Below are positions 18,706 through 23,719 of a stretch of DNA of 64,000 nt, in pieces. The stretch covers positions 1 through 64,000 of the forward strand of contig JAEOTZ010000071.1 in the NCBI GenBank assembly GCA_016839585.1, in the 5' to 3' direction. The notes below the pieces were generated by a model that did no database searches, had not been told where the DNA came from, and was given only the letters and a program-made list of their open reading frames with translations. Positions within the stretch are counted from its first letter, which is position 1. Each line of letters begins with the position of its first letter. The DNA is from Promethearchaeota archaeon (GTDB taxonomy: Archaea; Asgardarchaeota; Lokiarchaeia; Sigyniarchaeales; SOKP01). Made by a program: the position numbers and the translations under genes.

Positions 18706-21540
18706 TTATTTCCGTATCTTGAATCCTCTTTTCTTTCTAATATTCCACTTTCTTACTTCATCCATTACAGATACGCTGAAAGCTCCAAGAAAAAGAGTAA
18801 TCCAATAATAAGGGTGAAACAGTGGAATAACATGAAATGCTAATCCTAATGGTGTAAAAAGAATTAATAATTGGAGCCCAAGAGATAAACCTGTAGCCCA
18901 GAATAGATGTTTATTTGGAAAGAGATAAAATGGCTTTATATTGGAAGTACACGTATAAACAAACAATAATTCACATATAACTAAATTCGTAAACACAATA
19001 GATTGTGCTAATGACATCGCATATAAATTTGCATCAGTACCCGCAGTTACAAAATCAGTTGTTAATTTCGGATCAATTCCCGCTTCCGCCCATGCTGGGA
19101 TTAATACAGACCATAGAAGTAAATAGAGTGTTATATCAGTTATCGAAGTATATATTCCAAGGAGTAAAACAGGCCCCTTTATCTCTGGAAGCAAAGTAAA
19201 CCCTTTTCGTGGTTTATCTTTCATTACATCAGGATCTGTTGGAGTGAGACCTAGAACCATAGCAGGAATTCCATCTGTGGCTATATTAAGCCAGAGAATC
19301 TGAATTGGAGCAACAGGAAGTGCAAGAAATACAGTTGAGAAAAGTTTCATAACGATATAAGCTGAAAGAATTAAAAATATTTCATCAAAGTTAGTGCTTA
19401 GCATATATCTGAAGAAACCTTTAGTAGTTTCGAAGATACCTCTGCCTTCCTCTATAGCATTAACGATCGTAGCATAATTATCATCAATTAATATCATTTC
19501 AGAAGCTTCTCGAGTCACTTCAGTTCCTTTGAGCCCCATTGCTACGCCTACATGTGCTCCTTTTACAGCTGGTGCATCATTTACTCCATCTCCTGTCATT
19601 GAGACTATTAAATCTAATTCTTTTAATCTCCTTAAAATTCTTAGCTTATGTTCTGATGTGACTCTCGCAAAAATATCTACTGTTTTAACTCTTTCCCTAA
19701 GCTCATCATCACTCATTTCTTCTAAATCTACTCCTGTAATTGCTTCATCGGATTCAGTTAAACCAATCTCATGAGCAATTGCGATAGCTGTAATTTTATG
19801 ATCTCCTGTAATCATCATTGTTCTTATTCCTGCCATTCTGGCTTCCTCTATAGCATCTTTCACTTCATCTCTCGCCGGATCAATGATACCTGCCAAACCA
19901 AGATATATATAGTCTTTTTCTATTTCATCCTCCTTATACCCCTCATTAAGAGGTTTATAAGCAACCCCTAAGACTCTTAAAGCATTTTTTGCAAATTCTT
20001 CATTTTTGTTGAGAATTATATCTTTTACTTCGTTGATTGGTTTTACTTGATTATCATGAACAGCATGACTAGCATTGATCAACATAATATCTGGAGCTCC
20101 CTTAATTAAGGAATATAATCTGTTATCAATTTTCACTACTACTGACATCATTTTCCTGTCGGAACTAAAAGGTATCTCATCAATCTTCTCTGCTTTAGTG
20201 TCTAACTCCATTTTCATAGCCAACACTTTCATTGAAATTTCGGTTGGATCTCCAACTACATCATTATCATTTGTTCCATCATTTCTCGGTGAAACATTTG
20301 AATTATTACAGAACATACATACTTCTAGATATCTTCTTAAATTATCTTCAATTTGAACCTGTTTACCTTTATCATTAATAATTTTACCCTCAAGTGCATA
20401 ACCTACACCCTCTACGACATATTCCATACCACCTACAAACACTTTTACAACAGTCATTTCATTCTTTGTCAAAGTACCTGTTTTGTCAGAACAAATAACA
20501 TTCACTCTTCCCAATGTTTCTACAGCAGTTAATTTCCTTACTAATGCATTTCTATCTGCCATTTTTCTCATTCCAATACTCATAACTACTGTAATCACAA
20601 CAATAAGCCCTTCGGGAACTGCGGAGACTGCTAAACTTATTGATATTTCAAACGCTTCAACAAGTTCGTCAACATCAAATTCTGTAATTAACAAAATTAT
20701 AAATTCAATAAAAAATACAGCGGCACAGGTTATCAATATGATTATTCCTAACAATTTTCCAAATCTATTTACCTCTTTCTGGAAAGGTGAAAGCTCTATC
20801 TCTTCTTCTTGTAAACTTTCAGCAATTTTCCCTATTTCAGTTTTCATTCCTGTGCCAATTACAATTCCTTCTCCATTTCCTCTAGTAATTATAGTATTCA
20901 TATATCCCAAATTTGTTCTATCTGCTAATATCATTTTTTCTTCTACCGGATTAAGTTGTTTTTTCACTGGTTTTGATTCTCCTGTTAAAATTGCTTCATC
21001 TACAGAGAGAGAAAATTCCTTATAAAGCCTTATATCTGCAGGGAATTTGTCTCCTTCTTCGAATAATACAATATCTCCAGGTACAACATCTTCTACAGCA
21101 ATTTCTAAAACTCTATTTCCTCTCCGTACTTTGGCAAAGTGAGGTGCTAATTTCTTTAAACTCTCAAGAGATCTTTCTGCTTGATATTCCTGATAAAACC
21201 CTAAAATAGCATTAACAATCAAAATTGCAGCAATTACTATCGCATCTGTATATTCTGTTGACCATGACTCTGCTCCAGGTCTACTTGCTTCCCAAGCCCC
21301 TATAATTACTGATATAATTATAGCAAAAATAAGTAGGTAAATAAGAAAGTCTTTAAATTGTCCTATAAATATTTGCAAAGCTGTTTTTCCTTTTTCTTTT
21401 ACTAATTCATTTTTGCCATATATTTCAATTCTTTTTTGAGCCTCTGATTCGATTAAACCATTTTCTATCGAAGTATTAAGTATATTTTCTACATTTTCAA
21501 ATGTCGTTGAATGTGCATGAATTTCTTTTATTTCAACCAT
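18706..21540 (-). CDS. Cation-transporting P-type ATPase (type IIA, Ca2+-ATPase-like)
   Basis: TGES, AVPEGL, CSDKTGTLT, KGAP, MITGD, TGDGVNDAPA, WLNIATDGIPA. Confidence 0.95.
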   Translation of the reverse strand: MVEIKEIHAHSTTFENVENILNTSIENGLIESEAQKRIEIYGKNELVKEKGKTALQIFIGQFKDFLIYLLIFAIIISVIIGAWEASRPGAESWSTEYTDAIVIAAILIVNAILGFYQEYQAERSLESLKKLAPHFAKVRRGNRVLEIAVEDVVPGDIVLFEEGDKFPADIRLYKEFSLSVDEAILTGESKPVKKQLNPVEEKMILADRTNLGYMNTIITRGNGEGIVIGTGMKTEIGKIAESLQEEEIELSPFQKEVNRFGKLLGIIILITCAAVFFIEFIILLITEFDVDELVEAFEISISLAVSAVPEGLIVVITVVMSIGMRKMADRNALVRKLTAVETLGRVNVICSDKTGTLTKNEMTVVKVFVGGMEYVVEGVGYALEGKIINDKGKQVQIEDNLRRYLEVCMFCNNSNVSPRNDGTNDNDVVGDPTEISMKVLAMKMELDTKAEKIDEIPFSSDRKMMSVVVKIDNRLYSLIKGAPDIMLINASHAVHDNQVKPINEVKDIILNKNEEFAKNALRVLGVAYKPLNEGYKEDEIEKDYIYLGLAGIIDPARDEVKDAIEEARMAGIRTMMITGDHKITAIAIAHEIGLTESDEAITGVDLEEMSDDELRERVKTVDIFARVTSEHKLRILRRLKELDLIVSMTGDGVNDAPAVKGAHVGVAMGLKGTEVTREASEMILIDDNYATIVNAIEEGRGIFETTKGFFRYMLSTNFDEIFLILSAYIVMKLFSTVFLALPVAPIQILWLNIATDGIPAMVLGLTPTDPDVMKDKPRKGFTLLPEIKGPVLLLGIYTSITDITLYLLLWSVLIPAWAEAGIDPKLTTDFVTAGTDANLYAMSLAQSIVFTNLVICELLFVYTCTSNIKPFYLFPNKHLFWATGLSLGLQLLILFTPLGLAFHVIPLFHPYYWITLFLGAFSVSVMDEVRKWNIRKKRGFKIRK

Positions 21541-21679
21541 GATAACCTCAATTTTTTTTGTTTAGATTTTTATAAAAAATATAATCATAAATTATAATCT
21601 AAATATTGGAATTATTAAATTTAAATTCATTTATAGATATTAGCAAATTAGAATCATAAATAAATAAATTTGGTGATTT

Positions 21680-22027
21680 CTGTTTAAGATAATTTTTTCA
21701 AACTCTGCATTGGAATATATTTATGAACAACAAGAGAATTATTCTTTAAAAAATGATTTTAAAAAACTTGTTATTACAATCTTTTTCTATTCCTCTTCAA
21801 CTTGAACATTGGCCTTTTGTGGTAATGTTATTGAATTAATTGAAAAACAGAAAGTTATTGAAGATGGAGATTTCATTGAATGGACCGATTTGGATAAAAA
21901 TCTTAATATTAATATTTTCATTGAACAAAATTTGCTCCCAGAATTAGAATTAAAAGATCAAATACTCATTGATGTTGCAATTGGGGAAATAAAAGGTGTA
22001 AAAATAGGTATGGTGTTCATAAAATAA
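21680..22027 (+). CDS. Candidate HesB/IscA-like selenoprotein (115 aa; in-frame UGA at 21803-21805 read as Sec42)
   Basis: Frame of ORF 21809..22027 extends upstream through a single TGA to a CTG at 21680, preceded by GGTGA; translation MFKIIFSNSALEYIYEQQ...LVITIFFYSSST-U-TLAFC...NINIFIEQNLLPELELKDQILIDV; SECIS-like hairpin in the 3' UTR. CTG start is uncertain (TTG at 21710 is an alternative). Confidence 0.75.
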
Positions 22028-22032
22028 TCTCA

Positions 22033-22102
22033 GGATGTATATGGTTAATAAAATGAACCAATCTTAAAAATTCTAGAAGATTGGTGATTAACGGTTGCGT
22101 CC
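22033..22102 (+). promoter_or_regulatory. Eukaryote-type SECIS element (kink-turn AUGA...GA core, A-rich apical loop)
   Basis: ATGA 22053-56; ACCAATCTT 22057-65 pairs perfectly with AAGATTGGT 22077-85; loop AAAAATTCTAG; GA 22086-87; lower helices GTTAA/TTAAC and GGATGTA/TGCGTCC. Confidence 0.8.
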
Positions 22103-22231
22103 GTTTATTTTCAAAATAATTCAAATTCTTAAAAAAATAAAATATAAATTTTATAAGCATGATTATTCTTATAAGATAAAACTTAATTTTATCAATAAAA
22201 TTTAGTTTTTTAAATATAACATACAACTTTA

Positions 22232-22831
22232 TTGATTATCATGAGACCATCACGAGTTTTTAGATGGATAATTAGAATATTAATATTAGTGTTAACATTA
22301 TCAGTTACTGCTGTTTCTTTTCTAGGTGGATTTTCTGCTATTATGATACTTTCTAATCCAGATAATATTGGGTTCGACACAGATAATATTGAATTTAATT
22401 TTGATGCTAATTGGACAACTCCAATTGAGATTAATAACATAAATTTTACTTTACCTTTTAATTTTACAAATGCGGGGTATTTTGATCTAGAAGATCTTAA
22501 AGTAAGTTTTCAAATAGGTTTACTTTATTGGCATGTTAATTTAACTGGAGATGGTTTAAATAAGACTAATTTTGTAAAAATATATGATAACTCAACTTCT
22601 TTCCCAACAATTAAAAAAGGAAAAACTTATTATGGTAATTATACAGGAACTAAAAGTGATTTTGGTAATTTCCTAGGAAATTTTCCAGATTATGATGAGA
22701 TAGATGTTATTAAAGATCCAGATTTTGAATTATATGCAAACTTTACATTAAGCTTAACGTATTCATTAGGACTCCATTCAATTAGACTTGGAATTTATAA
22801 CATATCAATATATGAATTTTCAGTAACATAA
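22232..22831 (+). CDS. Hypothetical membrane-anchored protein with a beta-rich extracellular domain
   Basis: One N-terminal TM helix, then N-x-T-rich beta-like segments (NFTLPFNFTNAGYFDL); first gene of a tight three-gene run. Confidence 0.7.
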   Translation: MIIMRPSRVFRWIIRILILVLTLSVTAVSFLGGFSAIMILSNPDNIGFDTDNIEFNFDANWTTPIEINNINFTLPFNFTNAGYFDLEDLKVSFQIGLLYWHVNLTGDGLNKTNFVKIYDNSTSFPTIKKGKTYYGNYTGTKSDFGNFLGNFPDYDEIDVIKDPDFELYANFTLSLTYSLGLHSIRLGIYNISIYEFSVT

Positions 22832-22843
22832 GAGGTTATCAAA

Positions 22844-23332
22844 ATGGGTCCAACTATAAACATAGTAAAAGGTACTATTTTTACTATTATATATGTATGT
22901 TTTACAATCATAATTCCAGTAGTAACATTTTCTTTACTAAGAGGATATGTTGTTGAAGGTTTACCATTAGATTTTACACAGGAAGATTTAAACAATATTA
23001 TATTTTGGGTTACTGCATTGGGATTAGTTATAAGTGGATGTGCTTTCTTCACACATTCTTCACCTAAACAATCAATAAGAAGAGGTTCTTTTGCTTTGAT
23101 CCAAGTATTAGTTAATTGTCTATACTTATGGAGTTATAAATTCTCAGGAGCAACTGAAATAATATTTGATTTAGATATAGGTGATAATTCAGGATTTCTG
23201 AGTTTGAATTTACAACAGATGGTTTTAGTTTATTTAGGAATTTATTTTCTAACTATAGTTCTAAAAGTATATGATGTTATTGATTTTACAATTAATAGAG
23301 AGAAAATCCGATACGATAGAATGAAAGAATAA
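22844..23332 (+). CDS. Hypothetical membrane protein with about 4 TM helices
   Basis: Four hydrophobic segments; GAGG-like ribosome-binding site upstream. Confidence 0.75.
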   Translation: MGPTINIVKGTIFTIIYVCFTIIIPVVTFSLLRGYVVEGLPLDFTQEDLNNIIFWVTALGLVISGCAFFTHSSPKQSIRRGSFALIQVLVNCLYLWSYKFSGATEIIFDLDIGDNSGFLSLNLQQMVLVYLGIYFLTIVLKVYDVIDFTINREKIRYDRMKE

Positions 23333-23347
23333 AGAGGTAGAGAAAAA

Positions 23348-23719
23348 ATGGGATTTTTAGAAATATTAGCTGATATTTTTGGAGCAATTTTGATTTTCTT
23401 AAAACCAATAGTAGAATCAATTGGTGAATGGATGGTTGATTGGATCTCAGCATCAATGGAATTTTTAAAACAAAACTTTAGCAGTGAACTAACTATTTAT
23501 ATTGTAATTTTTATCATTCTGATTGTATCTGGTGTTATTATAAATATCATTTGGCCAGGTGATCGCCCAGGAACAATATTCTCCAAAGGTTTAGATAAAA
23601 TAGAAGAAAAATTCGAAGAAAAATTGGATATTCCAAATGATATAAGGAGATGTAAGGATTGTGGTAATCCAATTGGGGATTCTAGAGTTTGCCCTTTATG
23701 TGGAGCTGAAAATGATTAA
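23348..23719 (+). CDS. Small membrane protein with a C-terminal zinc ribbon
   Basis: TM helix IYIVIFIILIVSGVIINIIW; CKDC...CPLC at the C-terminus; GAGGT upstream. Confidence 0.75.
   Translation: MGFLEILADIFGAILIFLKPIVESIGEWMVDWISASMEFLKQNFSSELTIYIVIFIILIVSGVIINIIWPGDRPGTIFSKGLDKIEEKFEEKLDIPNDIRRCKDCGNPIGDSRVCPLCGAEND

Follow-up and report, generated by a model that had tools for sequence, protein, structure and literature searches.

The HesB-like selenoprotein of Methanococcus maripaludis (TIGR01911) has been labelled with 75Se (PMC11097638), and the family with the CC/Se motif (NF041239/PF28096), first predicted in Moorella thermoacetica, is recorded from bacteria only (PMC13188914). In the Asgard archaea, surveys have described seven selenoprotein families (PMC4989117, PMC11227280), namely SelD, FrhA/VhuU, HdrA, FrhD/VhuD, Prx-like, AhpF-N, and DsbA-like, together with an intron-bearing tRNA-Sec (PMC4989117) and a SECIS element of defined shape, the lokiSECIS (PMC4989117; type I in PMC11227280). 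HesB-like and CC/Se selenoproteins figure among the 119 prokaryotic families reviewed in 2026, but neither is attributed to Asgard there (PMC13188914). Further, the word 'HesB' is absent from PMC4989117, PMC11227280, and 87 supplementary files of the 2024 survey. The protein discussed here belongs to none of the seven families and, as the preliminary description of this DNA had supposed, its family is unlisted in the open-access Asgard surveys, to which the literature search was limited. Yet it is a divergent branch of a fold known to carry selenocysteine (Sec), and it is decoded by a known system whose machinery, including the intron-bearing tRNA-Sec, is the same as that published.

In the window (the whole stretch of Lokiarchaeial DNA analysed, 64,000 nucleotides), positions 21680-22027 of the forward strand constitute one frame of 115 residues in total with a single TGA at codon 42. 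A code-11 ORF finder returns 21809-22027 alone (72 residues), a piece that had been suspected at the outset of being the tail of a longer gene split or missed by gene callers. The letters bear this out: a Shine-Dalgarno-like GGTGA (21672-21676, +), with GGTGA or GGTGG at an equal offset in most orthologues, a CTG at 21680, 41 sense codons, the TGA (21803-21805), and a TAA at 22025-22027 are all in the sequence. Public databases hold fragments of 60-87 residues and W-containing versions, filed as hypothetical proteins of Lokiarchaeota/Promethearchaeota, and the NCBI and JGI entries for the Sec family genes are 80-residue hypothetical fragments. The possibility that the TGA is an assembly error had also been raised; contigs from four sequencing runs, which belong to three studies, agree on the letters of the TGA and the CTG, and one run is a possible source of the analysed assembly.

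The read-through protein matches 55 of the 161 genomes of the class, with one TGA in every match except two marginal hits and two Cys paralogues. A profile search across 400 genomes of the phylum recovered 53, every one in the window's own family. A frame with one TGA at the identical column is thus present in 53 genomes (52 of Lokiarchaeia besides that of the window), a count that overstates independence because kin share features. Both flanks of the TGA are conserved to a similar degree (0.55 upstream and 0.64 downstream), and in three close pairs pN/pS is 0.25-0.58 upstream and 0.10-0.24 downstream; both sides are therefore under purifying selection. In the 26 rows of alignment A2, the Sec site, F46, C47, and five further columns are invariant. 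The codon is TGA in all homologues of two subfamilies, A and B, and encodes Cys in paralogues, so that the anticipated alternation of UGA and Cys is found among homologues; Cys stands at the Sec column in P0037, P0038, P0048, P0052, L050, L061, and L144. The second cysteine that had been noted five residues after the Sec (UxxxxC; UTLAFC in the window protein) is Cys47, encoded at 21818-21820. It is invariant in subfamilies A and B and missing in the main Cys paralogue group and in several distant Sec relatives, and the U/C pair is consequently not universal.

Recoding of UGA42 as Sec, the central claim of the preliminary description, is backed by the conserved TGA, by a SECIS, and by the machinery of the genome. 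The SECIS had been announced in the 3'-UTR but given no coordinates; it lies at 22053-22087 (+) as a type I lokiSECIS with AUGA, a 9-bp stem, an 11-nt A-rich loop that starts AAAAA, and GA. It resembles the published type I element in its AUGA-GA core, its 9-bp stem, its 11-nt loop with leading adenines, and its nearness to the stop. Rfam returned no match for it, and its z scores are -3.3 and -3.2. Across the whole AT-rich genome the strict SECIS pattern gives 5 hits against 2, 7, and 6 in shuffles, which is chance level, and position and covariation therefore carry the weight. Among 35 homologous elements, 93.7% of cells are paired and all nine stem pairs (9/9) show two-sided compensatory changes; 0 of 500 shuffles paired as highly, and slid controls reached 44-58%. 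Sec forms have a SECIS and the inspected Cys-encoding paralogues have none, even within one tandem Sec-Cys-Sec array. In one sub-lineage (L012, L014, L025) the SECIS core is AUGU rather than AUGA, with the TGA retained.

Immediately downstream, at 22090-22105 (+), lies a small hairpin that is conserved in the family; its loop is of UGCG type, and a stretch rich in U comes after it. Hairpins with UGCG- or UGCA-type loops also follow the genome's SelD, MvhD, and other SECIS-like elements (G000 C5:27632, C5:28969, C9:62050, C31:25965, C79:46909, C90:33576). The hairpin at 22090-22105 may be an accessory element or a general part of the Lokiarchaeial SECIS, or it may be a terminator.

The machinery that was to be sought in the source genome is there. 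SepSecS (388 bits), EFSec, and SelD all score over cut-off, with EFSec on the same contig as SepSecS and SelD represented by two genes, each with a TGA. A PSTK-like gene (E 2e-42) is full length and below its curated cut-off, as is a tRNA-Sec candidate adjoining SepSecS, which was read by hand from an Rfam hit and has a TCA anticodon, a long variable arm, and a T-loop intron of ~31 nt. ARAGORN did not call this tRNA-Sec at default settings, and a relaxed run gave noise. Scanning for SECIS elements additionally turned up a Prx-like gene and two MvhD/VhuD genes in which TGA occupies Cys sites, and SepSecS is present in 151 of the 161 genomes of the class. The window gene is almost certainly a genuine Sec gene.

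Its homologues fall into three groups, often in tandem: subfamily A, to which the window protein belongs (U-T-x-x-F-C-G-N, VYG end), subfamily B (R-S-U-S-x-x-x-C), and Cys forms without SECIS. Subfamily A forms one group in the tree (support 96/94), A, B, and the Cys forms come together (95/82), and the Cys forms appear in three places, the deeper branches of this tree not being settled. With a broader profile, Sec relatives come to light in additional families of Lokiarchaeia and in one more Asgard family (6/6 genomes); these distant relatives have motifs such as GUCG, GUSG, and UGG and SECIS-like hairpins of their own. Members of this selenoprotein family occur in at least 53 genomes of a single Lokiarchaeia family, and several other Asgard families have Sec relatives; the list of seven is accordingly incomplete, the published Asgard families having been found mostly by similarity to known ones. 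The family reveals no new recoding mechanism, and its function is inferred. Studies of SECIS gain and loss can draw on the dozens of natural eukaryote-like SECIS variants that it supplies, on its tandem Sec/Cys/Sec paralogues, and on the orphan SECIS that a deletion left behind. Paralogues with an inserted Cys-rich loop and at least three cysteines at the Sec site (L101:5001-5381, or P0053; P0055; L143:1803-2336) are located between two Sec paralogues and are candidates for metal or Fe-S binding.

That the protein is HesB/IscA-like, with U at the IscA Cys site, had been proposed by eye, and a structure prediction, structure searches, and a bridged alignment agree with it. The AlphaFold2 model of the read-through protein has a pLDDT of 85.5, lowest in the active loop (~65). 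The top 12 Foldseek hits are SufA, IscA, DsrR, and other chains of the IscA/SufA fold (best E 6.8e-4, TM about 0.5), and VIA, which does not use Foldseek, scores IscA at Z 8.3 (rmsd 3.3 over 91 residues) and SufA at 8.1, the first unrelated chain reaching 2.9. Sec42 aligns to IscA Cys35 in a sequence alignment bridged by intermediates, and in the predicted model Sec42 and Cys47 sit on an exposed, flexible loop after strand 2. On the strength of the model, the protein very probably has the IscA/HesB fold. The alignment also confirms that the C-terminal CGC/CGCG, with its two further ligands, is absent; therefore the window protein is not a classical A-type carrier. Thus the fold holds, whereas membership in TIGR01911 or among the A-type carriers, judged by the criteria of those families, does not.

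Comparison with each neighbour makes the distance plain. The window protein had no sequence match in Pfam, NCBIfam, or PDB sequences, and comparing profiles with three E. coli carriers gave a weak result. IscA, SufA, and ErpA (PF01521) share its fold and the Cys35 position, but identity is 10-14%, and the window protein lacks their CGCG, has a second Cys five residues on, and is encoded outside an isc/suf operon. PF01521 does not match it (the best row of its family reaches E 0.0066), and exceeds its cut-off in only 1 of the 161 genomes of the class, so that canonical A-type carriers are nearly absent there. A natural Cys homologue lies nearest to the PF01521, DUF779, and CC_Se_fam clusters, at 0.80-0.87, which is a lead only. 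A precedent for this fold without carrier function is DsrR, an IscA-like protein reported not to bind Fe-S. The DsrR of Allochromatium vinosum (PDB 2k4z) is a structural neighbour of the window protein (Z 6.5), but is bacterial, Cys-based, and encoded in a dsr operon. The methanococcal TIGR01911 protein is alike in its IscA-related fold, in Sec at the loop of the first Cys, and in the archaeal logic of a 3'-UTR SECIS; it differs in its motif, UxGP (PMC13188914) against U-T-x-x-F-C in the window, in being a shorter protein that lacks the extra helix and tail found here, and in having a methanococcal SECIS rather than a lokiSECIS. The TIGR01911 cut-off of 66.35 bits was reached by none of the 161 genomes of the class, the best paralogue scoring 22.1 bits; a Cys paralogue reaches E 1.8e-4. 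The nearest named family is NF041239. Both are families of small HesB-like selenoproteins, but NF041239 is recorded with the motif CxxU and from bacteria only, whereas the window family has UxxxxC, is archaeal, and carries a eukaryote-like SECIS in the 3'-UTR. Distant Asgard Sec relatives score 29-40 bits against NF041239 (cut-off 40 bits), with one at 40.2; of alignment A2, three rows match weakly (best E 0.064) and the window protein itself does not match. A search for bacterial members of the CC/Se family returned Asgard-like sequences only.

How such a protein might be made and what it might do can be sketched from these features. Ribosomes would bind the GGTGA and initiate at the near-cognate CTG or at the TTT one codon later; by analogy with the published Lokiarchaeia system, the 3'-UTR SECIS would then recruit EFSec and Sec-tRNA so that UGA42 is read as Sec. 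Sec42 and Cys47 would most likely form a selenol/thiol pair that switches between the reduced state and a selenenyl-sulfide, or alternatively the two might bind a metal or a sulfur or selenium atom. The protein would accordingly be a small accessory redox relay or sensor rather than a three-cysteine Fe-S carrier. Motif and fold suggest that a redox or metal-binding relay may quite possibly be its main job, a point on which we are tentative; identity and mechanism taken jointly as set out here form the best explanation, and one that we regard as reasonably probable.

The point of initiation is less simple than first described. The proposed CTG (21680-21682) is present, but the start may be either that codon, which is the likely one, or the next, TTT (21683-21685). 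Of 57 orthologue rows, 32 have ATG, GTG, TTG, or CTG at the position of the CTG, which favours CTG, and the CTG start is common to four close relatives. This column is 3 nt from the GGTGA, and the modal distance is 6 nt, at which 28 of 43 comparable frames of the genome have a start-like codon. At that distance, TTT is the codon in subfamily A (45/57 rows), and ATG predominates in subfamily B. About ten subfamily A members have no start-like codon before the TTT, and five have an in-frame stop one or two codons ahead of it (TAG or TAA; L021:1495-1503, L008, L024, L068, L113). TTT occupies the 6-nt position in no other long frame of the genome. UUU initiation in part of the family is thus possible on these codon patterns. 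A start at TTG 21710 was rejected, as it would delete strand 1 and part of helix 1. In the genome at large, among 43 long frames bounded by GGTGA, the 6-nt start position has ATA, ATT, or ACG in 15 and ATG or TTG in 13, and non-AUG starts look common.

Several other accounts of the protein deserve consideration. It could be an Fe-S carrier after all, its four ligands coming from U42 and C47 of a pair of subunits in place of the CGC, with clusters passing to neighbours, for example aconitase-family, radical SAM, or iron-sulfur flavoproteins. The IscA fold and Cys35 position, the near absence of canonical carriers from the class, an aconitase-family gene close by at 12 of 43 loci, one gene of radical-SAM type and another for a Cys-motif flavoprotein downstream within the window, and the C-terminal cysteines kept by some distant relatives are all consistent with this. 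However, the protein does not end in a CGC, only one Cys occupies the site in the main Cys paralogues, and 50 of 53 same-genus genomes have no match for the gene, which is therefore non-essential, with the neighbourhood conserved without it. We consider the carrier role unlikely, if worth keeping in view, and prefer the accessory relay.

The family may be genuine and the window copy nevertheless decaying toward loss. The TAA at 22025-22027 is premature, relatives having an AAA- or CAA-type sense codon in its place: position 22025 is T in two samples of one study and A (codon AAA) in a sample of another. Orthologues extend seven codons beyond the stop of the window copy, with a VYG end in 38 of 57 rows, and the ancestral tail lies stranded at 22028-22048 (+), six codons ending VYG and the ancestral TAA at 22046-22048. 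The TAA at 22025-22027 is thus a strain-level nonsense allele that removes the tail only. The loss of a conserved tail, the weak start codon, and the absence of the gene from most of the genus would all fit decay, as would the G060 genome, which keeps the SECIS without the coding sequence. There, an orphan SECIS and small hairpin lie between the pump gene described below and the downstream gene (L121:360-424; G060:C66 about 81259-81323), the remnant of deletion of the whole coding sequence. Set against this, the frame, TGA, Cys47, Shine-Dalgarno sequence, and SECIS are intact, pN/pS is below 1, the core fold is complete before the TAA, other orthologues are also tail-less, and the CTG is not peculiar to this copy but shared by its close relatives. 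Decay of the window copy is a doubtful reading. Pairing of the stranded tail codons with the downstream hairpin, considered as a cause of tail conservation, is not kept in the inspected homologues and was rejected.

The tail itself invites a further proposal, namely that subfamily A docks on the 20S proteasome by an HbYX tail (VYG) as a redox-sensitive adaptor or gate opener, the window copy being tail-less. HbYX denotes hydrophobic-Tyr-X as the last three residues (PMC11475706). Of 70 database homologues extending to the last strand, 42 have such an end and 11 more have TYX, against a background of 1.6% of the genome's long frames; a PAN-like and three larger AAA ATPases there also end in HbYX. 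The genome encodes two proteasome alpha subunits (contigs C62 and C83). All three tail codons vary synonymously, and selection therefore acts on the protein. But the remaining 17 end differently, often with one to four residues after the motif, which HbYX does not permit; the tail is absent from subfamily B and the Cys forms, and, standing at the site of the C-terminal arm of IscA, it may do no more than pack against the domain. The window copy ends FIK and so has no HbYX end. As a proteasome-binding motif, the VYG tail is a lead from sequence, not a result, and proteasome docking by subfamily A seems to us improbable. The fuller picture, in which subfamily A is a selenium redox switch with an IscA scaffold, attached to the archaeal 20S proteasome by its conserved VYG tail and limited in output by near-cognate initiation (UUU only in some lineages), is more improbable again; if true, it would link Sec chemistry with proteostasis in the prokaryotes most closely related to eukaryotes.

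Adjacency suggests yet another role. On the reverse strand at 18706-21540, across a gap of 139 bp from the Sec gene, lies a divergently transcribed SERCA-like (P2A) ATPase, identified with Pfam. This conserved neighbour adjoins the Sec gene in 37 of 43 loci, a count in which a few genomes figure twice and which includes rearranged loci and an arrangement with a pump on either side of the Sec gene. Animal SELENON acts on SERCA, and the window protein could be an analogue, though not a homologue, that acts as redox regulator of the adjacent SERCA-like Ca2+ pump. The pump has SERCA-type Ca2+-site motifs and a CxxC in its N-domain, in keeping with such a role. Yet in 26 informative same-genus loci without the gene, the pump sits directly beside the same downstream genes; the cysteines of the pump do not track the Sec gene (C408 in 25/33 with it and 27/27 without); and distant Sec relatives have different neighbours. 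Regulation of the pump is accordingly quite improbable. Downstream in the window, at 22232-23719, come three unannotated genes for membrane proteins, all in one orientation, of which the last has a zinc-ribbon tail; throughout the genus they are syntenic with the pump. In L101, a gene for a GDT1-family transporter follows at a greater distance.

Finally, it is barely credible that the 72-residue piece is the whole gene and that the TGA genuinely ends translation, encodes Trp, or results from misassembly: the short fragments and W versions in databases speak for it, but the W versions arose because the gene caller used TGA=W (entries are labelled 'with_TGA=W'), the TGA is conserved between genera and between sequencing runs, and the part upstream, itself conserved, provides strand 1, helix 1, and strand 2 of the predicted fold. 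TGA terminates 168 long frames in the genome, which is therefore code 11, and TGA=Trp was rejected; the Trp or random residues in homologues that would have spoken against Sec reduce to this gene-caller artefact. The same genome contains two further SECIS-bearing frames with an in-frame TGA (G000 C9:62050 and C31:25965), and these resemble none of the families checked.
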